Shown: positions 1-10,338 of the stretch, one piece after another
Layout: each line of letters opens with the position of its first letter
Numbering within the stretch: the stretch's first letter is position 1
DNA from: a virus
Taxonomy: Duplodnaviria > Heunggongvirae > Uroviricota > Caudoviricetes
Length of the DNA stretch: 10,338 nucleotides
IMG/VR virus record: IMGVR_UViG_2534681772_000012
Location: 1 to 10,338 of that record
Strand: one strand, 5' to 3'
Notes under the pieces: generated by a model
What the model was told of the DNA's origin: nothing
What the model saw: the letters and a program-made list of their open reading frames with translations, nothing else
The model's database searches: none
Made by a program: the position numbers and the translations under genes

Positions 1-70
1 TCACAAAAACGTAACCACACTGCCAATAGCCAGAGAAATATAATTTTTTTTGCGATTTTTTAGAACTGAC

Positions 71-130
71 ACAACGTGAAACAACGAGACACCACGACGA
101 ACAACGGCGAACAATCTGGAACAAACTTGA
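71..130. repeat. Six tandem 10-bp units with ACAACG-like core (ACAACGTGAA/ACAACGAGAC/ACCACGACGA/ACAACGGCGA/ACAATCTGGA/ACAAACTTGA), helical-turn phased; putative protein-binding array upstream of alpA
   Basis: Read directly from sequence: units start every 10 bp from position 71. Function is inferred from the phasing and the position in the AT-rich leader upstream of the alpA-like gene. Confidence 0.4.
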
Positions 131-410
131 TTAACATCTGACTGACACCCTAAAAAGTTGATTTTCAGTCGTTTTACTGGCTTTTTGTACATTGGCGAAT
201 CACTCTTAAAAACATGTAAAAAAGGCGTAAAAACAGAATTTTATGCCTTTGCACCACAATGAATTAAAAGAGTTTTTATTCTCATTACCACACTTCTGTA
301 AAATGACCGCCGCCAGTGTTTGCCATTCCATAAACACCCTGACACAATCCGACGCACCACAACACAATAGGACACCAAATAACTCTTTAAGAAATATCAA
401 AGGGGGAATT

Positions 411-599
411 GTGTTAAGCACAGATCGCTTTATACGTGAAAAAGAATGTCAGCAACTTACAGGCCTGAGCCGTTCATGTCGGTACCGCCTGGAAAAAACC
501 GGACAATTCCCATCACGGCGTAAGCTCGGCGGTCGTTCCGTTGGCTGGTCTTTATCCGAAGTTCTGGCATGGAAGGAAAGCTGCGAGGCAGTTCACTAA
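411..599 (+). CDS. alpA: AlpA-family (phage Vis/Xis-like HTH) transcriptional regulator
   Basis: C-terminal 63 aa of ORF 243..599 (MLSTDRFIREKECQQLTGLSRSCRYRLEKTGQFPSRRKLGGRSVGWSLSEVLAWKESC) match the AlpA/Vis family length and HTH pattern. GTG start at 411 follows RBS AGGGGG (401-406); the in-frame extension back to 243 has no RBS and looks like leader. Stop TAA 597-599. Confidence 0.8.
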   Translation: MLSTDRFIREKECQQLTGLSRSCRYRLEKTGQFPSRRKLGGRSVGWSLSEVLAWKESCEAVH

Positions 600-651
600 T
601 CAGGCTGGCGGCACACCGCCGCCACCCATCCACTAATACAGAGATCTAACC

Positions 652-1842
652 ATGAATACTGGATATTCTCCCGAACAAGGGCGGGGCTTCGTTCGTCCTG
701 AAAAACAGAATCTGCAAAATTTTGCCGAAATTATTCCGGTTATTTCCGGCCTTACTGGCGGGAGTGAAACCAATATTGTTAACGCCAGAGCGTTGCAGAT
801 GTTTGATGATAAAAAGGGAGTAAATTTAACTTACACCCCTGACGGCAATCAGAATATGAGCATTATCTCTGAGTCAGGTTTCTACAAACTAATAAAAACA
901 AAAAGCGCCCCGTTCCCGGAGCGCCTTTGTGAACAATTAACCTACTGCGCAAAAAATGAATCTGAGCAGTGGGATTATATCAACCGTGTGGCGAAGCGCC
1001 ACAATTGCCGGATAACAGGCAAAACAAAGGCCACCCGCTACGGTGGCCCCTCGACACAAGCTACACGTTATCCCCAACGCATGAGCATCACCAACAATGC
1101 CACATTTGCGGCTGGTGGGCAATGTGATCAGTCAGATTTGGTTCGTTCCAAGGTTTGCAACGAGAGCTTTTTCCTGTGCTCTTTAAGGAATTTCTCAAGA
1201 GCAAAAGCACATGGCGCGAATCTTTCTGATTCATGCTCTATCTTTCTGCGCCGTCTTTTCCGTGCCGGTGATAATGTTTTGGTCAATTCTTTATCGGTCA
1301 TTGTGTTGTCCTGCATAGCAATGCGCCGTAATACCTTACACCACGGCGCTGATGGTGATTACTCTGGTTCTTTGGTCTTGCGACGCTGGAGTTCTTCGCG
1401 TGCAACGGTGACAAGCTGCCCGATTTCTTCCGCTGCTTTGATGCCGATTTGTTCGACCTTAGCCAGGGCATCCAGTGACGACACAAGGGGATTTTCTCCG
1501 CTGCCTTCTGCTTGGCGGCGGGCTATTTCTCCGCGCATGGCGGTTACGATAAATCCGGCATTGCTTTCGCCGTCCAGCTTAACGGATTCCATCCCTTGCA
1601 TAACATCTAGTGGGACTCTGACAGTTGTCAGTTGTGATTTTGCGTTTTTGTTAGCCGTTGCCATTTCTGAAACTCCTAATCATCGGTGTGTTTCAGTATA
1701 CACAAAAAAAGAAATACAAAAAGCCTTGACGTGTGTTTCATGCGCTCATAACATGAAACACACCAAAAGAATTGTTGAAATACAAAGAGCAACGCCCCGC
1801 AGTGCCGGAAACACATACGGGGCGTCTAACCACCAACGATAG
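652..1842 (+). CDS. Questionable ORF; at most an N-terminal remnant (~652-900) of a disrupted gene, faintly Bro-N/Rha-like (IISESGFYKLI)
   Basis: ATG-to-stop ORF from the track. After ~aa 90 the translation is Ser/Cys/Arg-rich, as expected for an antisense read. It runs antisense to two protein-like minus-strand ORFs and through two minus-oriented terminator hairpins. No convincing RBS before ATG 652. Confidence 0.2.
   Translation: MNTGYSPEQGRGFVRPEKQNLQNFAEIIPVISGLTGGSETNIVNARALQMFDDKKGVNLTYTPDGNQNMSIISESGFYKLIKTKSAPFPERLCEQLTYCAKNESEQWDYINRVAKRHNCRITGKTKATRYGGPSTQATRYPQRMSITNNATFAAGGQCDQSDLVRSKVCNESFFLCSLRNFSRAKAHGANLSDSCSIFLRRLFRAGDNVLVNSLSVIVLSCIAMRRNTLHHGADGDYSGSLVLRRWSSSRATVTSCPISSAALMPICSTLARASSDDTRGFSPLPSAWRRAISPRMAVTINPALLSPSSLTDSIPCITSSGTLTVVSCDFAFLLAVAISETPNHRCVSVYTKKEIQKALTCVSCAHNMKHTKRIVEIQRATPRSAGNTYGASNHQR
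891..924 (-). terminator. Putative rho-independent terminator for minus-strand transcripts
   Basis: GC-rich imperfect hairpin 905-924 (GCGCCCC/GGAGCGC, one mismatch) followed on the minus strand by TTTTTGTTTTTATT (reverse complement of 891-904). Confidence 0.4.
1021..1048 (-). terminator. Putative rho-independent terminator for minus-strand transcripts
   Basis: Perfect 7-bp stem GGCCACC (1029-1035) / GGTGGCC (1042-1048) with a 6-nt loop, followed on the minus strand by TTTGTTTT (reverse complement of 1021-1028); about 80 nt downstream of the stop of minus ORF 1128..1301. Confidence 0.45.
1128..1301 (-). CDS. Small basic hypothetical protein (~57 aa, MTDKELTKTLSPARKRRRRK...)
   Basis: Minus ORF 1128..1316; the second in-frame ATG (1301) has a weak AGGA-like RBS. 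Lies just downstream of the RHH-like regulator and upstream of the minus-strand terminator. Composition is protein-like but there is no recognisable family. Confidence 0.3.
   Translation of the reverse strand: MTDKELTKTLSPARKRRRRKIEHESERFAPCAFALEKFLKEHRKKLSLQTLERTKSD
1359..1664 (-). CDS. Putative ribbon-helix-helix-like DNA-binding regulator (candidate repressor of the island), 101 aa
   Basis: Strong RBS AGGAG 8 nt upstream of ATG (minus 1677-1673). Balanced protein-like composition; N-terminal beta-strand-like TTVRVPLDV followed by helix-loop-helix (MQGMESVKLDGESNAGFIVTAMRGEIARRQ) resembles the RHH/Arc-MetJ fold. Divergent from the rightward operon promoter, the classic regulator position. 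Confidence 0.6.
   Translation of the reverse strand: MATANKNAKSQLTTVRVPLDVMQGMESVKLDGESNAGFIVTAMRGEIARRQAEGSGENPLVSSLDALAKVEQIGIKAAEEIGQLVTVAREELQRRKTKEPE
1686..1763. promoter_or_regulatory. Divergent promoter/operator region: sigma70-like promoter TTGACG (1726-1731) - 17 bp - TAACAT (1749-1754) for the rightward operon, overlapped by a perfect 12-bp inverted repeat GTGTGTTTCATG (1731-1742) / CATGAAACACAC (1752-1763); a third GTGTGTTTCA half-site at 1686-1695; leftward -10-like TATACT (complement of 1696-1701)
   Basis: Hexamers and repeats read directly from the sequence; assignment as operator for the adjacent regulator is inference. Confidence 0.5.
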
Positions 1843-1861
1843 CAAGATTATCGAGGCTGCT

Positions 1862-2068
1862 ATGAGAAATCATACCATACACCCGCAAGGGCGGGACTCG
1901 CACAACCTGAATAAATACATCTGGCGTTTTATCGCCCTGAGTACGGCACAACCGCGCGTGATTACCATTGAGGCCACCAGCGAACAGGAAGCCCGTCAGC
2001 AATCACCGGCTGGCTGCGTGATGGTATTCGCCGCCCGTATTCGTCAGGGGGTGCACCATGTGCAATAA
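1862..2068 (+). CDS. Small protein, probably Icd-like (host cell division inhibitor Icd-like family of P4-type satellites)
   Basis: ATG 1862 with GAGG RBS; the track ORF uses an upstream TTG at 1772. Motif pattern YIWRF-ALS...EATSEQEAR...FAARIRQ matches my memory of Icd-like proteins. Stop overlaps the next start (ATGTGCAATAA). Confidence 0.5.
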   Translation: MRNHTIHPQGRDSHNLNKYIWRFIALSTAQPRVITIEATSEQEARQQSPAGCVMVFAARIRQGVHHVQ

Positions 2069-2525
2069 CACCCGTCCGGACGCAGCCGCCGAAGCAATCA
2101 AAACACTGATTGATGCGCTGATTGATATTTCTGTTATCGCGGACAGGGCGCATAAGCACGCTACCAGTGAAACAGAATATGCCGGGGCTTTCGTTCCTCA
2201 TTCGCTGGCGGTTATGCAACTTAGTGCGGATATGGCGCTGAATGAGGCCAAAGCCATCCTGATTGCTGATTGTGAAAATGGGGGGGGGGTTATGCGTGAT
2301 GATCGTTTTAATTCCCTGAAACAGGAATTTTCCGGCGTTCCTGATGATGCGGCTGATGCGCTTTCGTCAATGCCAGAGCTTATTAGAGCGGCTTTTTTCT
2401 TACTTTCCACGAGAGAATATAAATCAACGGGGCTTGATGTACTGAATATCGCCGCCGATTATGCGGAATATGTGGCAGAGGCGCGTTACAGAAGAAAATT
2501 TCCTGAGGATGTAAGCCATGCGTGA
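2058..2525 (+). CDS. Hypothetical protein (155 aa) containing an internal G10 homopolymer
   Basis: ATG 2058 preceded by AGGGGG RBS; translationally coupled to neighbours on both sides. No recognisable family. G10 run at 2280-2289 encodes GGG and is followed by an in-frame ATG at 2292. Confidence 0.55.
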   Translation: MCNNTRPDAAAEAIKTLIDALIDISVIADRAHKHATSETEYAGAFVPHSLAVMQLSADMALNEAKAILIADCENGGGVMRDDRFNSLKQEFSGVPDDAADALSSMPELIRAAFFLLSTREYKSTGLDVLNIAADYAEYVAEARYRRKFPEDVSHA

Positions 2526-2751
2526 TATTTACCACGAAACAATAGACCGCGCATTTCTTGCACTTTCTCACAGTGAAAACATGCTGGAAATATTGCGCAT
2601 ATGGCTTGAAACACTTGGCGACAATGAACGCGACAAACAAAAATCAAGAATTGCCACGGCATTAATAACGCTTCTTGAGCCTGTAATAATGGAACTGCAA
2701 GAAATAGATCTATTGCACGACAGATATAAAGAACAGCACACCGGAGAATAA
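2518..2751 (+). CDS. Hypothetical protein (77 aa)
   Basis: ATG 2518 overlaps the upstream stop by 8 nt; GAGGA RBS; protein-like composition; no recognisable family. Confidence 0.55.
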   Translation: MRDIYHETIDRAFLALSHSENMLEILRIWLETLGDNERDKQKSRIATALITLLEPVIMELQEIDLLHDRYKEQHTGE

Positions 2752-2756
2752 AAATA

Positions 2757-3056
2757 ATGAAACTTAAATATTCTGGCTTAACTGCCAGTGGCAACACTCA
2801 CCCTAAATTTACGCGCGGTGATATTTACCGCGACCAGTACGGCGGCACGGTAATGATTAAGGGCGTGGAAGAACGGCGCGTAATCTACCGCCGTGAAGGT
2901 TACGAATATGATTGCGTGATGCCTGTTTATCAGTTCCGGTGTGATTTTTCTCTGGTACAGACCGCGCCGCATAACGTGCCCACCAGCAACGCCAGGGCAC
3001 GGGCAAACATCCAGAAGCTGAAAACCATGATTAACGGATTCAGGGGCAAGAAATGA
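2757..3056 (+). CDS. Hypothetical protein (99 aa)
   Basis: ATG 2757 with GGAG RBS; stop overlaps the rep start (ATGA at 3053-3056); no recognisable family. Confidence 0.55.
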   Translation: MKLKYSGLTASGNTHPKFTRGDIYRDQYGGTVMIKGVEERRVIYRREGYEYDCVMPVYQFRCDFSLVQTAPHNVPTSNARARANIQKLKTMINGFRGKK

Positions 3057-4468
3057 AAAGCGCACCGAACTTAAAAAAACAGCCTTACGACAAAATGACC
3101 GAAGTCATTATTTTTGCGGGTAGTGATGCCTGGGCGCACGCGAAACAATGGCAGGAGCAGGACGGGCGACTTGCTGGCGACAATGTTCCGCCTGTATGGC
3201 TGGGAGACAGCCAGCTTGACGAACTGGCAGGCCTGAAAATTATCGACGATGGTCGCTATTGTGTCCGACTGTACAAGGCAGGCCACATCAAGCCGTCAAA
3301 TATTAATGCCATCGGGCAAAAGCTGGCGGCGGCAGGTGTACGGGATGCGAATTATTACCCTGAGGGAATGCACAGTCAGAAGCTGGAGAACTGGCACGAC
3401 TACCTGCAACGGATCCGCGAACAGGCAGAGCGCGGGGAAATACTTACTGACGAGCAATACAGCCAGCGAAAAACCACGCTACCAATGAGCATTGGATCTG
3501 CAGGGTACGACACACAGCTTGATTATGTCGTTAAGGGCGTGATTCCGGCTAATTCATTGTGCAGCACATACGGCGCGAGCGGTTCCTATAAATCGTTCCT
3601 CGCGTGTTCCTGGGCGTGTCATGTTGCCACGGGTCGCCACTGGGGAGGTCGCAGGGTGGCGCATGGTTCGGTGATGTATGTTGTCGGTGAAGGTGGCATT
3701 GGTGTCCCCCGCCGTATCAAGGCATGGGAAATCGTTAATGATGAACGGGTGAAAAATCTGTACCTGGTAAACCGCCCGATTTTTCCTGCAGCCCAGTTTG
3801 ATGTTGATGAAATGGTTATCGCATCCCGCCAGGTTGAACGGGAAACGGGTAAACCGGTACGCATGATTATTCTGGATACGCTGGCGCGTTGCTTTGGCGG
3901 TAATGATGAAAATGACGCGCGGGATATGGGGGCGTTTATCCGTGGATGTGACGAACTGAAACGACGCACAGGGGCCACGGTGCTGGTGGTTCACCATTCC
4001 GGCAAGGATGAAACAAAAGGGGCGCGTGGTTCCAGTGCATTTCGTGCATCTCTGGACGCTGAGTACCGGATCCGCCGCGAAGGCGCGGACAGTGAGGCCC
4101 TGGTTATCTCCTGCACCAAAATGAAGGACGCGGAGGAACTGAAAGAGGCTGCATATGATTTACGTGTGGTGGAGCTTTTTACCGACGCTGACAAGGAGTT
4201 AATCACGTCGCTGGTGGTTGTGGATAAGCCGCGCCCACCCGTTGAACTGGAGCGCATCGAGGAGGCCGGAAACAAGACGGAGAATCACGCCGCACTATGG
4301 GGCTGTATCCGGTCACGCACACAGCGCGGCGATAAATGCACTATCCCGTTGTTGCGCGATGATATGAAAAAGCTGGGGTATGAGATGAAAAACTTCCGGC
4401 GCTGGCTGTACAAGCTGGAAAGAGACGGCGTTATCGCTATTGACGGTGATGATGTGCGCCCACTGTAA
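3053..4468 (+). CDS. Replication initiator / RepA-like RecA-fold (AAA_25-type) ATPase, 471 aa; no primase domain recognised
   Basis: Walker A-like GASGSYKS and Walker B-like hydrophobic run ending in D (RMIILDTL) in the central region; RBS AGGGG; an iteron array follows the stop codon immediately, as in PICI/SaPI-type pri-rep/ori units. Confidence 0.8.
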   Translation: MKSAPNLKKQPYDKMTEVIIFAGSDAWAHAKQWQEQDGRLAGDNVPPVWLGDSQLDELAGLKIIDDGRYCVRLYKAGHIKPSNINAIGQKLAAAGVRDANYYPEGMHSQKLENWHDYLQRIREQAERGEILTDEQYSQRKTTLPMSIGSAGYDTQLDYVVKGVIPANSLCSTYGASGSYKSFLACSWACHVATGRHWGGRRVAHGSVMYVVGEGGIGVPRRIKAWEIVNDERVKNLYLVNRPIFPAAQFDVDEMVIASRQVERETGKPVRMIILDTLARCFGGNDENDARDMGAFIRGCDELKRRTGATVLVVHHSGKDETKGARGSSAFRASLDAEYRIRREGADSEALVISCTKMKDAEELKEAAYDLRVVELFTDADKELITSLVVVDKPRPPVELERIEEAGNKTENHAALWGCIRSRTQRGDKCTIPLLRDDMKKLGYEMKNFRRWLYKLERDGVIAIDGDDVRPL

Positions 4469-4669
4469 AAAGTGAGGCGCAAAAGTGAGGGGATAGCAGG
4501 AACTGAACAAAAAGCAACCGCGCCCCTCACTTTTCAATCTGTATATAGGCTCAAAAGTGAGGAATAAAAAACACATTGAAAAACAACATATTAGAATCAC
4601 AAAAAAACAAGGTTGGAAATCATGTGGGGAGCTTAAAAAGTGAGGCGAAAAAGTGGGGAGTAGTGGGGA
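4467..4669. repeat. Putative origin of replication: iterons (consensus AAAAGTGAGG) flanking an AT-rich core
   Basis: Copies at 4467-4477, 4481-4490, 4523-4534 (inverted), 4553-4562, 4635-4645, 4647-4657 (degenerate), plus degenerate 4621-4630 and 4661-4668; AT-rich stretch 4563-4620; directly 3' of rep. Confidence 0.6.
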
Positions 4670-4921
4670 ATGACCAGAAAAAGCAGAGATAAAACAGCAC
4701 CAAAATATCGCGCATTAGACATGACAGAGCACGCCTTAAAGGTGGCAATCAGAACGATAGACCGCCACGCCGGAGAAGGATACGCGAAAGCGCATCCCGA
4801 ACTGATAAGCGCATTCATGACCACGGCGGCGGCAAATTTTGCCACACTGACAGAACGGGAGATTGCCGAAGCGGAACAGGTGACAACCATCAACGTTAAA
4901 ACCGGAGAGCAGACAGCATGA
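4670..4921 (+). CDS. Hypothetical protein (83 aa), translationally coupled to ssb
   Basis: ATG 4670; stop TGA overlaps the ssb ATG (ATGA at 4918-4921); no recognisable family. Confidence 0.5.
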   Translation: MTRKSRDKTAPKYRALDMTEHALKVAIRTIDRHAGEGYAKAHPELISAFMTTAAANFATLTEREIAEAEQVTTINVKTGEQTA

Positions 4922-5340
4922 CAGCACAGATAGCGGCTTACGGGCGGCTGGTGGCTGACCCGCAGTTAAAGACCACCAGCAAGGGTACACAAATGACGAT
5001 GGCGAGTATGGCGGTCCCACTTCCGTGCAGCCAGGCAGATGACGGAACGGCGACGATGTGGTTATCCGTCCTGGCGTTTGGCAGACAGGCCGAAGCACTG
5101 GCAAAGCACCGCAAGGGTGAACTCCTGAGCGTGGCGGGTAACATGCAGGTAAGCCAGTGGACAGGCCAGAACGGCGAAACGCGGCGGGGCTGGCAGGTTA
5201 TCGCAGACAGCGTAATCAGTGCGCGAACGGCGCGACCGGGCGGCAAAAAAGGTCAGCAGGGGCAGGCCACTGACGCACTGAACAGGGCAAAACAACAGTC
5301 GGGGAATGATGATCCGTACGGCGATAATATACCGTTTTAA
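4918..5340 (+). CDS. ssb: Single-stranded DNA-binding protein (short, 140 aa)
   Basis: GGAGA RBS; OB-fold-like N-terminal pattern; Gly/Gln-rich linker; acidic C-terminal tail ...DDPYGDNIPF resembling the SSB signature DDDIPF. Confidence 0.65.
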   Translation: MTAQIAAYGRLVADPQLKTTSKGTQMTMASMAVPLPCSQADDGTATMWLSVLAFGRQAEALAKHRKGELLSVAGNMQVSQWTGQNGETRRGWQVIADSVISARTARPGGKKGQQGQATDALNRAKQQSGNDDPYGDNIPF

Positions 5341-5357
5341 ATTCTGCAAACAAAAAG

Positions 5358-5386
5358 ATGCCGGAAAAAAATAGATTTTCCGGCAT
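5358..5386. terminator. Hairpin with 11-bp perfect stem (ATGCCGGAAAA / TTTTCCGGCAT, 7-nt loop); terminator-like, T-tract only on the minus-strand side
   Basis: Read directly from the sequence, 18 nt after the ssb stop. On the minus strand it is followed by CTTTTTGTTTG; on the plus strand there is no T-tract. Confidence 0.4.
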
Positions 5387-5551
5387 GCTACATAAATCCC
5401 GACCAAAGGAAGTAAATACATTAACACGAATTATCAGCACTGAAGTTGTCACGGCATATTTTATACAACATTGCACTTGGTTGCATGTATTCGCATAGCA
5501 GACATCGGTAATAGAATATATTCACAATTATTTGTAATGAATGTAAAGAGG

Positions 5552-6598
5552 ATGAGTATGGTTGATTTATATTCGCCTACACAGCTTGTGCAGGTGGCTA
5601 ATGCTGAAGATGTGCAAAAAAAATTAAATGCGTTGTTTACCAGTTTGTTTTTCACTCGCTCGGTAATGTTTGAATCGAGAGACATTATTCTTGATACGAT
5701 CGACGATCCAAATATCCCGATCGCGGCGTTTTGCTCTCCTATGGTGGGCAGTAAAGTTTCACGAGATGAGGGATACGAATCAAAAACAATTCGCCCTGGC
5801 TATATGAAACCGAAAAGCAGCATTGATCCAAATAAGTTAGCTGTGCGCCCTGCTGGTGTATCACCTGAACAATACAATGCTTTTGGGGCGCGTAATATTA
5901 AAGTTAAACAGGCGATTGTAAATCAGGCTAAAGCTATACGTGCACGTATTGAATGGCTTGCTGTTCAGGCAATCACAACGGGGAAAAATATCATTGAGGG
6001 CGATGGTATTGAACGTTATGAACTGGACTGGAATATAAAACCACAAAATATTATCACGCAGTCTGGCGGTGCTGAGTGGTCAGGTAAGGATAAAGAAACT
6101 TTTGATCCAAATGATGATATTGAGAGCTACGCAGAATTTAGTGAGGGCGTCACTAATATCATCATTATGGGCGGTAATGTATGGAAGAAATACCGTTCAT
6201 TCAGAGCGATAAAAGAGGCTCTGGATACCCGCCGTGGTTCTAATTCCGAACTGGAAACGGCCCTTAAAGACCTTGGTGATTCGGTGAGTTTTAAAGGGTA
6301 TATGGGCGATGTTGCGATTGTTGTTTACAGCGGACGTTATACCGACGAGGACGGAACTGAAAAACATTTCCTTGATCCTGATTTGATGGTGCTTGGCAAT
6401 ACGGCTCTTCAGGGGATTGTCGCCTATGGCGGTATTCAGGATCCGGAGCTAACCCGAATGGGGCTGACTAAAGCCGAACTTGCACCGAAAAACTATATTG
6501 TGCCTGGTGATCCGGCTATTGAGTACGTACAAACGCACTCTGCACCACAGCCAATACCGGCCCGCATCAATCGTTTTGTTACCGTTCGCATTGGCTAA
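5552..6598 (+). CDS. Lambda gpE-like major capsid protein
   Basis: Translation from MSMVDLYSPTQL aligns along its length with my memory of lambda gpE (MSMYTTAQLL..., ITQSGG-EWS-DK-T-DP-DDIE-YA, TRRGSNSELETA-KDLG, GDVAIVVYSG-Y, MVLGNT, GDPA). Start 5552 by homology; ATG 5558 has better RBS spacing from AAGAGG. Stop TAA 6596-6598. Confidence 0.85.
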   Translation: MSMVDLYSPTQLVQVANAEDVQKKLNALFTSLFFTRSVMFESRDIILDTIDDPNIPIAAFCSPMVGSKVSRDEGYESKTIRPGYMKPKSSIDPNKLAVRPAGVSPEQYNAFGARNIKVKQAIVNQAKAIRARIEWLAVQAITTGKNIIEGDGIERYELDWNIKPQNIITQSGGAEWSGKDKETFDPNDDIESYAEFSEGVTNIIIMGGNVWKKYRSFRAIKEALDTRRGSNSELETALKDLGDSVSFKGYMGDVAIVVYSGRYTDEDGTEKHFLDPDLMVLGNTALQGIVAYGGIQDPELTRMGLTKAELAPKNYIVPGDPAIEYVQTHSAPQPIPARINRFVTVRIG

Positions 6599-6607
6599 GG
6601 GGGAGCA

Positions 6608-6850
6608 ATGGCTACTCATTACACTGAACTCATGTCTGGCACTGAAGCACTGGTTACTACGCTGGGGATATTTTCAGCCAATAAAGGGGTAATACCTGCG
6701 TTTACGCCACTGATGCAGGAAGATGCAACTGGTGCGCTAGTGGTATGGGATGGAACGAGCGCAGGCAAAGCGGTTTATGTTTCCGCTGTACAAATCGACA
6801 CTGAACCGCCCCGGGAATCCTGGAGACTAAACTCCCTGAGAAAGAGGTAA
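6608..6850 (+). pseudogene. Lambda gpD-like head decoration protein gene, 3'-truncated by IS629-like insertion
   Basis: RBS AGGGGGAG; TPLMQEDATGALVVWDGTSAGKAVYVSAV matches the lambda gpD region [29 protein letters not shown]. Homology ends at 6801, where the IS inverted repeat begins; the last ~16 codons of the ORF are IS-derived. Confidence 0.7.
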
Positions 6851-6855
6851 ACAGG

Positions 6856-7182
6856 ATGACTAAAAATACTCGTTTTTCCCCCGAAGTCCGTCAGAGGGCG
6901 ATTCGTATGGTTCTGGAAAGTCAGGGCGAATATGACTCACAGTGGGCGGCAATTTGTTCCATTGCCCCAAAGATTGACTGTACACCGGAGACTCTGCGTG
7001 TCTGGGTACGCCAGCATGAGCGGGATACCGGAGGCGGTGATGGCGGGCTCACCACCGCTGAACGTCAGCGTCTGAAAGAGCTGGAACGTGAAAATCGTGA
7101 ACTGCGCCGCAGTAACGATATCCTTCGCCAGGCTTCCGCTTATTTTGCGAAGGCGGAGTTCGACCGCCTCTGGAAAAAGTGA
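6856..7182 (+). CDS. IS3-family transposase OrfA (HTH/leucine-zipper part), IS629-like
   Basis: 108 aa, [30 protein letters not shown]...[36 protein letters not shown]; ends at the frameshift window. Confidence 0.9.
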
Positions 7183-8069
7183 TGCCACTGCTGGATAAGC
7201 TGCGTAAGCTGTACGGGGTCGGACCGGTATGCAGTGAACTACATATTGCCCCGTCAACGTATTACCACTGTCAGCAACAGCGACATCATCCTGATAAACG
7301 CAGTGCCCGTGCGCAGCGCGATGACTGGCTGAAGAAAGAGATACTGCGCGTATACGATGGGAATCATCAGGTATACGGTGTGCGTAAAGTCTGGCGTCAG
7401 TTGTTACGGGAAGGAATCAGGGTAGCCAGATGTACAGTGGCGCGCCTCATGGCGGTTATGGGACTTGCCGGTGTTCTCCGGGGTAAAAAGGTCCGCACTA
7501 CCGTCAGCCGGAAAGCCGTTGCCGCAGGCGACCGCGTAAACCGTCAGTTTGTGGCAGAACGTCCTGACCAGTTGTGGGTGGCTGATTTTACTTACGTCAG
7601 CACATGGCAGGGGGTCGTCTATGTGGCGTTCATCATTGATGTGTTTGCCGGATACATCGTGGGGTGGCGGGTCTCATCGTCTATGGAAACGACATTCGTG
7701 CTGGATGCTCTGGAGCAGGCGTTATGGGCCCGTCGACCGTCCGGCACAGTCCATCACAGTGATAAAGGTTCTCAGTATGTATCGCTGGCCTACACACAGC
7801 GGCTTAAGGAAGCCGGATTACTGGCATCAACAGGAAGTACTGGTGACTCGTATGACAACGCGATGGCGGAGAGCATCAATGGCCTTTACAAAGCGGAGGT
7901 AATACACCGTAAGAGCTGGAAAAACCGGACAGAAGTGGAACTGGCCACACTCACGTGGGTGGACTGGTATAACAATCGACGATTGCTGGAAAGGCTGGGC
8001 CATATCCCACCGGCAGAAGCAGAAAAAGCTTATTATGCTTCCATCGGAAACGATGATCTGGCAGCCTGA
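7179..8069 (+). CDS. IS3-family transposase OrfB (DDE catalytic domain), IS629-like; expressed as OrfAB fusion by -1 frameshift
   Basis: 296 aa with DDE-type motifs ([31 protein letters not shown]); overlaps orfA in the -1 frame. Confidence 0.9.
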
Positions 8070-8123
8070 GTTCACAGATAAAACACTCTCCAGGAAACCC
8101 GGGGCGGTTCACAAAGTGTTTTT

Positions 8124-9698
8124 TCATCGCACACCGCCTTTTTCCTGATGAAAGCGGCAACGAGCAATCACGGATTGAATTTCAAATTGTGTGGTTTCAT
8201 GGATTGAAATAAGTGGATTGCGGGCGTTACCAACACTGTCTGAAATGGAAATCAATTCATCGACTTCTTTAACTACACTCTCCAGCACCGCCTGATGGTC
8301 ACCATCAGTAAAGGGGCGGAAATACAGGCAACCGTAGCAGCAGCGTACTTCACTGAATGGGCATTTGCCATCATCTCTGGAGCAACCGCCAATCCCATCA
8401 TGCAACTCATCACCGATTATGCCGACCACGCGCTGGTCTTGCCATTTCGTTGAAGAGGTCAGTTCACCAGTCAACATCATAGCCACCATGTTTTGCCATA
8501 CCGGATTGATACCCAATGCTTTGGCTCGAATCAGTGCCAGTGCAGGCGTCGCCAGAATGTAATACTTGGCAACAGTAAGGGAGCTATGTCCCAGAATATG
8601 CGCAATTTCCTCGGCGCTGACCCCTTGCATAGCCAGTGAATGCCCCACGTTGTGGCGCAAGTCGGTCGGGGTAATGGTTGGCAAAGCCGCTTCGCCACGC
8701 TTTACGGCTGCCTGATAATCTGGCGGACTGAAACAGAGGAAGGCCTTGTTAATCGCTCTGGACACATTAAACGGTGCAGAGTTACTAAATTCAAATAGCT
8801 TGCCATCAGGTTTTAGTTGCGCTCGCTCGATATAGTGCCTAATCAACGCGCCGATTTCAGCTGGAATCGCCAAAAACAGACGTTCAGTCGTTACGTGCCG
8901 CTGTTTGGCGTAAGGAAGGAGTAAGCTATATCGTATTAATCCGGTTTCGGAGTTTCGGGTATCAATACGTAAATCTTTTACCGCCAGCTTGGCCAGTTGT
9001 ACCGGTCGGGCACCGGTGACATACGTCAGTCCCAGAATTACTGCATCTCGCATGGTGTTCAGACTGTAGTTTTCGCCATACCGAATCGCCACAGCCATTT
9101 CAAACAAGCCTTTACTGATCATGTTTTTTTCGAGGGGATCCAGAACATGATCAATTTCCTGATAGATTCCCCAGTCATGGGAGTGCGGGCGAGGGATGAA
9201 TTCGAGGTCTTCATAATCTTCGAGGGTAAAACCAGGGAATGCTTCGGTACAGAGGATTTTTAGGCCGAAAATGATAAAGTAGAAATATTGAGGTTTAATT
9301 TCCTGAGTTTCGAGGTAATCTTTCAACACCGTAAAAGTGAAAGCAGATTTGCTTATGCAATGATCAGTTGCCAAAGACCACGCATGGAGTACCCCAGGAA
9401 CCTGAGCTGGACACTTGGCAGATGCATAATGGAAGCAAATATATTTGATTAATTGGTTGCTGATTTTATCCTGACGAAAGTGGGCATAGCAGCGGCTTCC
9501 TGAATAATCGAATACCCAACTGTCACTTGTTGAGCTGATATATTTGTCATCAAAATGATCTGCCGATTTAAGATAAATACTAACTGGTATATTAACCTTT
9601 AAAATACTCTCAACAAATACAGGTGTGTAAATGTTGCTGTTCGACGCATTTAACTGTTTATTGATTCGACTCATATGCACTCCATTCATCGCATACAT
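8124..9698 (-). CDS. Tyrosine recombinase / phage-integrase-family protein, large (516-524 aa) with Cys-rich C-terminal region
   Basis: Catalytic-motif pattern in the central part: GARPVQLAKL (Arg box), DLRHNVGHSLAM (H-x-x-R), LGHSSLTVAKYYI (His/Tyr nucleophile box). The best RBS (GGAG) precedes the third in-frame ATG at 9674, so the true start may be 9674. Stop is 12 bp from the IS629 end. Confidence 0.75.
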   Translation of the reverse strand: MYAMNGVHMSRINKQLNASNSNIYTPVFVESILKVNIPVSIYLKSADHFDDKYISSTSDSWVFDYSGSRCYAHFRQDKISNQLIKYICFHYASAKCPAQVPGVLHAWSLATDHCISKSAFTFTVLKDYLETQEIKPQYFYFIIFGLKILCTEAFPGFTLEDYEDLEFIPRPHSHDWGIYQEIDHVLDPLEKNMISKGLFEMAVAIRYGENYSLNTMRDAVILGLTYVTGARPVQLAKLAVKDLRIDTRNSETGLIRYSLLLPYAKQRHVTTERLFLAIPAEIGALIRHYIERAQLKPDGKLFEFSNSAPFNVSRAINKAFLCFSPPDYQAAVKRGEAALPTITPTDLRHNVGHSLAMQGVSAEEIAHILGHSSLTVAKYYILATPALALIRAKALGINPVWQNMVAMMLTGELTSSTKWQDQRVVGIIGDELHDGIGGCSRDDGKCPFSEVRCCYGCLYFRPFTDGDHQAVLESVVKEVDELISISDSVGNARNPLISIHETTQFEIQSVIARCRFHQEKGGVR

Positions 9699-10085
9699 GG
9701 GAAAAGGTTGATTTCAGGGCTTCGTTATCAATCACAATTCGCTGAAGATTGGCCGTATTAGCCTGCTGAGATAGAAATCTTTTAGCGTAAAGATCAGGCA
9801 TATGGCTATTGTGACTCCAACCGCCAAGTAGCCGTAATTCATCCTTGGCTTCATCCATCAATCCAACGATAGAAAAGTCTATGGCTGCCAAGTGTGAGTT
9901 GGCCTTAATTTTTTGAAGTTTATCACGATAAATACGTTGAAGTGTTAAATAAGCCCAAGTATGCCGCGTTATATGAGGCGAGATGCTTTCAATGGCATCA
10001 TAATATTCATCTTTTTTATATTCAGGATACTGCACACTCATAATGTCATCAATACGGGTAAAGATATCATAGACTGCATGGTATG
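9658..10085 (-). pseudogene. C-terminal catalytic fragment of a second tyrosine recombinase, 5'-truncated by IS2
   Basis: PHITRHTWAYLTL (H-x-x-R box) and LLGGWSHNSHMPDLYAKRF (His...Tyr box) present; N-terminal domains absent. The first ~9 codons of track ORF 9658..10113 (MSGDSGGQS) are encoded by the IS2 terminal repeat. Its 3' end overlaps the start of the downstream recombinase. Confidence 0.65.
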
Positions 10086-10338
10086 TAGACTGGCCCCCTG
10101 AATCTCCAGACAACCAATATCACTTAAATAAGTGATAGTCTTAATACTAGTTTTTAGACTAGTCATTGGAGAGCAGATGATTGATGTCTTAGGACCGGAG
10201 AAACGCAGACGGCGTACTACACAGGAAAAGATCGCTATTGTTCAGCAGAGTTTTGAACCGGGAATGACGGTCTCCCTTGTTGCCCGGCAACACGGTGTGG
10301 CAGCCAGCCAGTTATTTCTCTGGCGCAAGCAATACCAG
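10086..10338 (+). mobile_element. IS2 (IS3 family) left end, partial; continues beyond the window
   Basis: TAGACTGGCCCCCTGAATCTCCAGACAACCAATATCACTTAAATAAGTGATAGTC... matches my memory of the IS2 terminal repeat and leader; followed by the IS2 orfA start. Confidence 0.85.
10177..10338 (+). CDS. insC: IS2 transposase OrfA (InsC-like), 5' partial at window edge
   Basis: ATG 10177; translation [54 protein letters not shown]... matches IS2 OrfA as I recall it; ORF open to the window end. Confidence 0.8.

Follow-up and report, generated by a model that had tools for sequence, protein, structure and literature searches.

Small genes of a phage-satellite early operon in Escherichia coli: an RgdR orthologue beside the replicase and two modules joined by a poly-G run

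What do the small genes lying between the regulatory switch and the replicase gene of a phage satellite encode, and how are they tied to one another? The question is raised here by positions 1862–3056 of a 10,338-nucleotide stretch of viral DNA (IMG/VR record IMGVR_UViG_2534681772_000012, Caudoviricetes, positions 1–10,338 of that record), the whole of which is called the window below. The original prediction, made from the letters alone, described a translationally coupled cassette of four open reading frames (ORF1 to ORF4). Only the first was said to have a recognisable family, and the three others were held to be candidates for undescribed activities. The explanation that best accounts for the data, and that is considered likely, takes the cassette for the early operon of a phage-inducible chromosomal island (PICI), with RgdR encoded by its last small gene and with two modules, N and C, joined in ORF2 by a run of ten G (G10).

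Positions 1–6801 of the window correspond to an island of E. coli TW10590 (NZ_CP035850); over 6802 alignment columns the two differ only once, in the length of the G run (G10 in the window, G11 in TW10590). This island lies between abgR and smrA. It carries int, alpA, a YlcI/YnfO gene on the minus strand, the cassette and the genes of a RepA helicase, a small ORF and a protein binding single-stranded DNA (SSB), followed by a lambda-E-type major capsid gene, a head decoration gene, a helix-turn-helix (HTH) gene, a terS-like gene and a last small ORF. The same gene order is common to the window island, EcCICFT073 and O-island 51 (OI-51, CP-933C) of O157:H7. PICIs of the EcCICFT073 type have a size of about 10–15 kb, are devoid of lysis or tail genes and carry few packaging or capsid genes; the TW10590 island measures about 9.6 kb from int to the last gene, has no tail or lysis genes and includes the capsid E, decoration and terS-like genes. 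At its left end lie int (TW10590 locus 11515–12744, outside the window) and a co-oriented alpA (about 411–599 of the window; PF05930, 64 bits), and a replication module of its own, made of the RepA/AAA_25 helicase and then the SSB (4918–5340), is found 3' of the regulatory region. In this PICI family, AlpA is the helper-induced activator, and EcCICFT073 carries capsid and decoration genes (PMC6092414, Fillol-Salom 2018). The identity with TW10590 and the PICI gene order bear out the original prediction that the element is a phage satellite, and the cassette is the conserved early operon of an EcCICFT073/OI-51-type PICI. About a third of the complete E. coli genomes searched (1863 of 5426) match positions 1300–4500.

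By sequence and position, ORF4 (2757–3056, plus strand, 99 aa) is an orthologue of RgdR. Its residues 16–68 match Pfam DUF4222 (PF13973) at 85.2 bits for a cutoff of 27, and it is 97% identical to the OI-51 copy of O157:H7 SS17 and 92% identical to C1493 of CFT073. Like RgdR (ECs1581), it is a 99-aa DUF4222 protein with an RGD motif at residues 20–22 and a lysine at position 35 (translation ...KFTRGDIYRDQYGGTVMIK...), and its gene is located directly 5' of the replicase gene, as are ECs1581 and C1493. Two statements of the original prediction have to be dropped here: ORF1 is not the only member of a recognisable family, and one of the three proteins presented as unknown has been studied experimentally in O157:H7 and CFT073. 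ECs1581/RgdR and C1493 activate LEE1, in the enterocyte-effacement locus (LEE), and type III secretion and act as repressors of motility; residue 20 is important to the activity of RgdR, which binds DNA weakly and without specificity (PMC3378721, Flockhart 2012). RgdR is also 'encoded by all the analysed E. coli PICIs' (PMC6092414). Taken jointly, it is highly probable that the window belongs to a Gram-negative PICI of the EcCICFT073/OI-51 type and that ORF4 is RgdR. The setting differs from that of RgdR in O157:H7, as the host of the window island need not carry the LEE. The RGD site varies naturally across islands (RGD, PGD, CGD or PDD in the RgdR alleles of loci L007–L059), and residues 43 and 62 of the window protein are I and C, against T43 and R or D at position 62 in the other alleles compared. 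A model predicts a Tudor/SH3-like barrel and a basic helix, giving a lead towards Tudor, CarD and UvrD-CTD; sequence and profile searches of the PDB with RgdR gave nothing significant.

The stop codon of rgdR overlaps the start codon of the gene of a RepA-family helicase (AAA_25; 3053–4468, plus strand, 471 aa; PF13481, 151 bits) as ATGA. This 4-nt overlap recurs in every related locus that has both genes, whichever type of replicase (465–471, 582–601 or 707–710 aa) is present. Because the overlap is invariant across replicase types, it suggests that the native role of RgdR may be tied to the replication module; a role linked to replication or transcription is put forward tentatively. No description of this invariable coupling of RgdR and replicase was found in the literature searched. 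In satellite P4, the cnr-alpha pair has a small basic protein encoded just upstream of the satellite replicase. The likeness, a small basic protein 5' of a replicase, is one of position and no more than an analogy for a replication cofactor: that RgdR is homologous to P4 Cnr or to any well-annotated phage protein was rejected, as tblastn against the phage collection gave four weak partial matches only, in records of Klebsiella and Escherichia phages, P4 not among them. In the OI-51 copy of O157:H7 SS17 (L002, 9975–11374), the RepA helicase gene is annotated as frameshifted and rgdR is intact; this copy is probably replication-defective, judging from its annotation.

The count of four genes is right for this window, where ORF2 (2058–2525) encodes 155 aa; in TW10590, EcCICFT073 and most public sequences, ORF2 is two genes (79–86 aa and 77 aa). 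The two modules meet at a G10 homopolymer (2280–2289, plus strand), which is the sole G or C run of seven or more in the window. No other trait of the segment is as unusual, and the original prediction does not mention it. The ATG of the C-module (2292) lies 2 nt past the run, and the run also resembles a Shine-Dalgarno site for it. In TW10590, where the run is G11, RefSeq annotates two genes of 80 and 77 aa that overlap by ATGCGTGA, the same octamer as at the ORF2/ORF3 junction. Run lengths of 6, 7, 8, 10 and 11 were found in six E. coli loci, with G7 in O157:H7 SS17, G8 in UTME-10 and in CFT073 (EcCICFT073, two genes) and G6 in 2014C-3051 and O145 RM12275-C1; the overall range, genomes and metagenomes included, is G6–G11. 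When the length leaves a remainder of 1 on division by three (G7, G10), the modules are fused into a protein of 154 or 155 aa. When the remainder is 2 (G8, G11), an N product of 79 or 80 aa ends within the start of the C-module, the overlap at its stop codon being 8 nt long (ATGCGTGA). When it is 0 (G6, G9), a tail of 12 codons brings N to 85 or 86 aa and the overlap with the start of the C-module to 28 nt. Each of the three reading frames occurs commonly and leaves both modules translatable. Since the start codon of C lies 2 nt beyond the run and is retained whatever the run length, the run is, as read from these frames, a fuse/split switch and not an on/off switch. Among the marks of phase variation, a homopolymer of seven or more in a coding sequence and length differences among near-identical alleles are present; a frame change that turns a product on or off is absent from the N/C junction, where only the fusion, the N tail and the length of the overlap change. 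A recoding of the run that locks its frame can be exemplified by GGAGGTGGC.

A pattern scan of metagenome contigs gave 53 loci, 50 of which have pure runs (G7 in 10, G8 in 27, G9 in 12 and G10 in one) and three interrupted ones. Of seven clusters with 225-nt flanks of at least 99% identity, five contain members that differ in run length (8, 6, 8 and 8; 7, 8, 8 and 7; 7, 6 and 9; 11 and 10; 9 and 8). Exact-sequence look-up in a collection of 15 billion proteins found the products of the window N allele on 163 contigs for 86 aa (G9), 78 for 79 aa (G8), two for 80 aa (G11), 15 for the fused 154 aa (G7) and four for the fused 155 aa (G10, the state of the window). For the CFT073 N allele, the 73-aa (G8) and 80-aa (G9) products were each found on at least 1000 contigs, and the fused 144-aa product on 34, with 566 more for a sister sequence; the 77-aa C-module alone was also found on at least 1000. 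The fused state of the window is thus a minority state. Thirteen complete O157:H7 genomes from different laboratories have one and the same length, G7, which argues that sequencing noise is low. Judged from these sequences, the polymorphism of run length is real and not sequencing noise, and it is highly probable that the tract is truly hypermutable.

The N-module (2058–2279, plus strand; phrog_5146) is predicted to form a helical hairpin and has conserved ends (PDAAA..TLM.ALIDI and N.AK.IL.ADCEN) and a variable centre, for which at least three unrelated segments are known. The C-module (2292–2525, plus strand; phrog_24341), 77 aa from its own ATG, is the stand-alone protein WP_001204078.1 and combines a conserved MRDDRFN.LKQEF head with a variable middle. 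The PHROGs database holds families for both halves and one, phrog_2512, for the fused protein. The C-module is annotated as a separate coding sequence in L001 (TW10590) and in loci L003–L006, and the N-module alone is a product of 68–92 aa in most relatives. A HMMER search over 1.84 billion representatives returned only 53 relatives, mostly stand-alone N (about 70–90 aa) or stand-alone C (75–77 aa) without the G run. In CH10508 (L006), an identical C-module lies behind a different, 121-aa gene, with the same ATGCGTGA overlap and a G6 stretch 5 nt before the ATG, and among E. coli genomes the homology breakpoints fall at the G run, N and C allele types reassorting freely. Because the relatives are mostly stand-alone, the C-module of CH10508 has another neighbour and the breakpoints coincide with the run, N and C are probably separate genes by origin. 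As the two lie side by side or fused in all relatives, P0286 (an independent fusion of N and C without poly-G) among them, the balance tips somewhat towards their acting as a pair. The AlphaFold (AF2) model of ORF2 has helices at residues 9–37 and 39–73 arranged as a hairpin (predicted local distance difference test score, pLDDT, about 80), a disordered Gly linker (74–80) and a four-helix C domain (81–147; pLDDT about 70). Foldseek comparison of this model with the PDB and BFVD returned generic helical hairpins only, none better than E = 0.4, and sequence and profile searches of the PDB with ORF2 gave nothing significant. A paralogy of the C-module and ORF3, both of 77 aa, starting with MRD and preceded by the ATGCGTGA overlap, was rejected at the sequence level, as BLASTP gives no alignment.

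The layout given by the original prediction is exact for the four ORFs (ORF1, 1862–2068, 68 aa; ORF2, 2058–2525, 155 aa; ORF3, 2518–2751, 77 aa; ORF4, 2757–3056, 99 aa) and for the overlaps ATGTGCAATAA at 2058–2068, ATGCGTGA at 2518–2525 and ATGA at 3053–3056. Chaining by overlapping stop and start codons holds at these three junctions and fails between ORF3 and ORF4, which are 5 nt apart (TAA AAATA ATG). A Shine-Dalgarno-like G-rich stretch is found 6–11 nt 5' of each start codon. All four ORFs match PHROG families end to end (E from 1e-32 to 1e-87) and are annotated in RefSeq genomes. The median ratios of nonsynonymous to synonymous substitution rates (dN/dS; Nei-Gojobori, the window against 17–27 distinct alleles per gene) are 0.20 for ORF1, 0.22 and 0.19 for the N and C halves of ORF2, 0.26 for ORF3, 0.31 for ORF4 and 0.11 for rep. 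The PHROG matches, RefSeq annotation and low dN/dS establish that the cassette ORFs are real genes, all five modules being under purifying selection. The junction distances of −11, −8, +5 and −4 recur across islands with replicases of 465–471, 582–601 or 707–710 aa. Extra small genes (70–122 aa) occur between the Icd-like gene and the N-module in CFT073 (L060, 4050–4280), in L002 (8781–8993), in L013 and in L016, and are joined by the same −4, −8 or −11 overlaps; the chain therefore accepts insertions, and the geometry of the coupling is kept. From ORF1 to the end of rep (1862–4468), no terminator-like site was found on the plus strand. The proposal of a single transcribed chain running into rep agrees with this, with the common orientation of the genes and with the sigma-70-like promoter and half-sites upstream.

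ORF3 (2518–2751, plus strand) matches phrog_2196 at 8e-42, and neither Pfam, NCBIfam, PADLOC nor the PDB (sequence and profile) gave a match; its family thus stands in PHROGs alone among the collections searched, and its length is 77 aa throughout the best 120 clusters. Its slot is filled by other small ORFs in some islands. One alternative slot allele, whose C-terminal 27 residues are common with ORF3 (41% identity), holds a second poly-G run of G7–G10, and its product is truncated in most copies. Slippage at this second tract is, from its reading frames, an on/off frameshift. The second tract is seen in L009, L022, L040, L041, L047 and L058, about 320 nt 3' of the first run, and the intact 69-aa product is encoded by two of these six copies only (L022 and L040). 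No description of the fuse/split poly-G junction, with its second tract in sister alleles, was found in the literature searched, and a literature search linking PICIs with homopolymeric tracts found no papers.

ORF1 (1862–2068, plus strand) belongs to the Icd-like family NF033153 of NCBIfam (69.8 bits, cutoff 25) and to phrog_6196 (6e-46). Searched by tblastn against 50,697 phage records, it gave a single match, in a 16.5-kb induced-prophage record other than P1, and direct similarity to phage genes was rejected on this result. A function as division inhibitor would be drawn solely from the 'Icd-like' name of the NCBIfam family. In the ImmI icd-ant operon of phage P1, a small Icd-type ORF comes first, translation downstream is coupled via overlapping ORFs and a structured leader RNA precedes them. 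The cassette is alike in its Icd-type head ORF, its coupling by overlaps and its structured leader; it differs in that the Icd link of ORF1 is through the NCBIfam profile only and that a C4-type RNA was not found by Rfam.

Upstream of ORF1, a divergent gene of the YlcI/YnfO family (1359–1664, minus strand, 101 aa; NCBIfam NF041551, 63 bits, cutoff 30) encodes a candidate repressor of the cassette promoter. The promoter/operator region between the two genes (1685–1815, plus strand) contains a sigma-70-like promoter, TTGACG-17-TAACAT, whose −35 box starts at 1726 and whose −10 box ends at 1754, and four GTGTGTTTCA half-sites, direct at 1686–1695 and 1731–1740 and inverted at 1754–1764 and 1808–1815, two of which flank the −10 box. 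In 20 distinct upstream regions of related islands, the −35 box is conserved; the half-site sequence differs among islands and the inverted-repeat layout is kept. Across the same loci, the YlcI-type protein is 32–100% identical to the window copy. Because the half-sites and the YlcI/YnfO allele apparently change together between islands, their co-variation fits a putative pair of repressor and operator. Half-site variants such as GTGTGTTTCA, GTGTTTAACAC, GTGGGCCACAC and TGTGCGCACA occur in the same inverted layout around the −10 box (upstream regions including those of L003, L006, L007, L014 and L042), and the variation of half-sites and YlcI/YnfO alleles resembles several immunity types. Further downstream, the leader RNA contains a hairpin (1792–1825, plus strand; 1792–1799 with 1818–1825, inner stem 1802–1804 with 1812–1814) supported by covariation: 93% of cells are paired, three pairs are compensatory and the covariation score was reached in none of 500 shuffles; with the partners slid by 1–3 columns, just 31–51% pair. 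Directly 3' of it comes an almost invariant stretch of 18–19 nt (CTAACCACCAACGATAGC, 1826–1844). The hairpin could be a point at which the whole operon is controlled, by antisense, by antitermination or at translation.

Put together, the working of the operon may be pictured as follows. Upon helper induction, the activity of AlpA and/or the relief of the YlcI-type repressor would open the promoter and drive one chain encoding the Icd-like protein, the N-module, the C-module, ORF3, RgdR and the replicase. Ribosomes would be handed from ORF to ORF, translational coupling tying the synthesis of the replicase to the translation of the small ORFs upstream. The N and C modules would work together, their variable centres contacting a helper or host target. 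Slippage in the G run would change the linkage of N and C, the tail of N, the stoichiometry of the products and probably the strength of the coupling into ORF3, RgdR and Rep. RgdR would natively serve the replication of the satellite or its early transcription, and what it does to LEE and motility would be a side effect on the host. That slippage has a selected regulatory effect is doubtful, with somewhat better than one chance in three. Several observations weigh against the picture as a whole. The free reassortment of N and C alleles with breakpoints at the run argues against a tight co-adaptation of the pair. The ORF2 model is of moderate quality (32 sequences, mean pLDDT 67, predicted template modelling score, pTM, 0.45), with no significant fold match. 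The evidence on run length is all polymorphism between isolates, and where assemblies come from long reads, homopolymer error could account for some of the variation. All frames are common and no module is lost in any, a picture that neutral drift gives as well, and the published phenotypes of RgdR are directed at the host, a replication role not being among those reported (PMC3378721).

The last but one of these points leads to a neutral account of the run, which is a serious contender that falls short of an even chance. An expanded Shine-Dalgarno-like run would simply drift in length, every frame giving both modules, and the fused 155-aa protein would be a harmless minority variant. The start of the C-module 2 nt past the run, and, in L006, the G6 stretch that precedes this ATG by 5 nt where another gene stands upstream, agree with it, as do the abundance of all three frames, the persistence of both fused and split forms with low dN/dS and the stability of G7 across the 13 O157:H7 genomes. 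It fits less well with the fact that a long mutable run is kept across N proteins only 43–49% identical, interruptions occurring in only three of the 53 contigs, or with the second poly-G run, which does truncate its product in the alternative allele of the neighbouring slot. Moreover, in the G6/G9 state the upstream stop codon lies 28 nt beyond the ATG of C, from which a weaker coupling is to be expected. Another account is a true contingency (phase-variation) locus: run length would set how much of the C-module, ORF3, RgdR and the replicase is translated, and subpopulations would differ in the inducibility of the satellite or in RgdR-dependent host phenotypes. The hypermutability of the run, the unbroken stop/start coupling from the junction to rep, the on/off frameshift at the second tract in the ORF3-slot gene of related islands and the effect of RgdR dosage on LEE and motility (PMC3378721) all speak for such a locus. 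Yet every downstream gene has its own Shine-Dalgarno-like site, so that the coupling may not be limiting, and the literature search yielded no link between PICIs and homopolymeric tracts; this account is accordingly held to be unlikely.

The reading of the original prediction, in which the small proteins are independent effectors for helper sensing, helper interference or host takeover, is regarded as improbable to a similar degree; this includes a variant in which the cassette is an abortive-infection module with a toxic Icd-like effector. The latter role has been reported for a prophage locus of ECOR61, made of six linked genes including a primase gene, but homology of that locus to the cassette could not be established. 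The early position in a satellite operon and the variable central regions of the N- and C-modules would suit effectors, and uncontrolled induction of EcCICFT073 harms the host (PMC6092414). On the other side, PADLOC defence-system models gave no matches to ORF1–ORF4, Rep or YlcI, one of the 'unknown' proteins is RgdR, and the interference function mapped in EcCICFT073 is Rpp, encoded elsewhere in the island (PMC6739421). For the N/C modules and ORF3, the proposed roles found no support here or in the literature searched, and in the EcCICFT073 literature searched no functional data were found on cassette genes other than rgdR. The hidden Markov model and structure searches suggested with the original prediction placed ORF4 (DUF4222/RgdR) and left the N/C pair and ORF3 without a recognisable family or fold, ORF3 having been compared with the PDB by sequence and profile. 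Finally, the differences in the G run could be sequencing or assembly errors, ORF2 being one gene (or two) everywhere. Homopolymers are error-prone in long-read assemblies, and the window and TW10590 differ at the run only. Against this, each frame-specific product is found exactly on tens to more than 1000 contigs from independent sources, G7–G10 occur in metagenome assemblies, many with contig names in the style of short-read assemblers, the CFT073 reference genome has G8 and the 13 O157:H7 genomes agree on one length; an artefact is hardly credible. The early operon of a PICI, with rgdR last among the small genes and the N and C modules joined by the run, is retained as the likely reading.

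Compared with this operon, EcCICFT073 encodes closely related proteins (97% identity for the Icd-like protein, 92% for RgdR and 90% for both ORF3 and the C-module). The differences concern the replicase, a 584-aa primase in EcCICFT073 and a 471-aa RepA-type helicase in the window, the N-module allele (46% identity), an extra 76-aa gene and perC, both of which are missing from the window, and the state of the run (N and C split with G8 in CFT073, fused with G10 in the window). The integration sites also differ, being roxA/phoQ for EcCICFT073 and abgR/smrA for the window island, which, unlike EcCICFT073, is disrupted by an IS3-family insertion. Phase variation by homopolymeric tracts is a feature of the contingency loci of Neisseria, Haemophilus and Campylobacter and is uncommon in E. 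coli. The window run is like these loci in being a coding poly-G of seven or more, in its length polymorphism among near-identical alleles and in the resulting frame change. It differs from them in that it fuses or separates two modules and switches no gene off, since a start codon follows the run, and in that its carrier is a phage satellite in E. coli.

Outside the cassette, the identity with TW10590 ends at 6801, where the head-decoration gene is interrupted (6801/6802) by an IS3-family element. Its orfA (6856–7182) and orfB (7179–8069) are accompanied by an ALIL frameshift pseudoknot (7137–7253, 116 bits). The insertion leaves the decoration gene with 80 of its 113 codons, and the window does not include the PICI's terS-like end. 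Beyond the insertion sequence, two adjacent, slightly overlapping ORFs on the minus strand (8124–10113) encode 524 and 151 aa, the former with a Phage_integrase domain (PF00589, 41 bits); this pair belongs to another element. At the other end, the gap of about 760 nt between alpA and ylcI (600–1360) contains, on the minus strand, two strong terminator-like hairpins (901–928, with a 12-bp stem, and 1026–1051) and a 62-aa ORF (1128–1316), where a 57-aa hypothetical protein is annotated in CFT073 and CH10508. Rfam searches of this gap and of the leader returned nothing at the gathering score and only chance-level matches at E above 1.

The cassette thus belongs to a described satellite family with one characterised protein and is ordinary in that respect. 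PICIs of this type matter as carriers of RgdR, a protein that modifies type III secretion as well as motility in enterohaemorrhagic E. coli (EHEC), and the problem that they pose is sharpened by a two-module 'gene' with a hypermutable run, by the coupling of RgdR to the replicase and by a covarying leader hairpin. For annotators, it follows that the split forms of N and C should not be called pseudogenes. If slippage changes expression, this would be a case of phase variation at work within a phage satellite, in a species with few loci of this kind. It is conceivable, at about one chance in four, that both poly-G tracts, at the N/C junction and in the ORF3-slot allele, are genuine contingency switches in the early operon of E. 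coli PICIs. Clonal satellites would then keep giving rise to variants in N/C fusion and in the amounts of ORF3, RgdR and replicase, which would amount to bet-hedging in the response to the helper, in satellite replication or in the RgdR-dependent regulation of host virulence.

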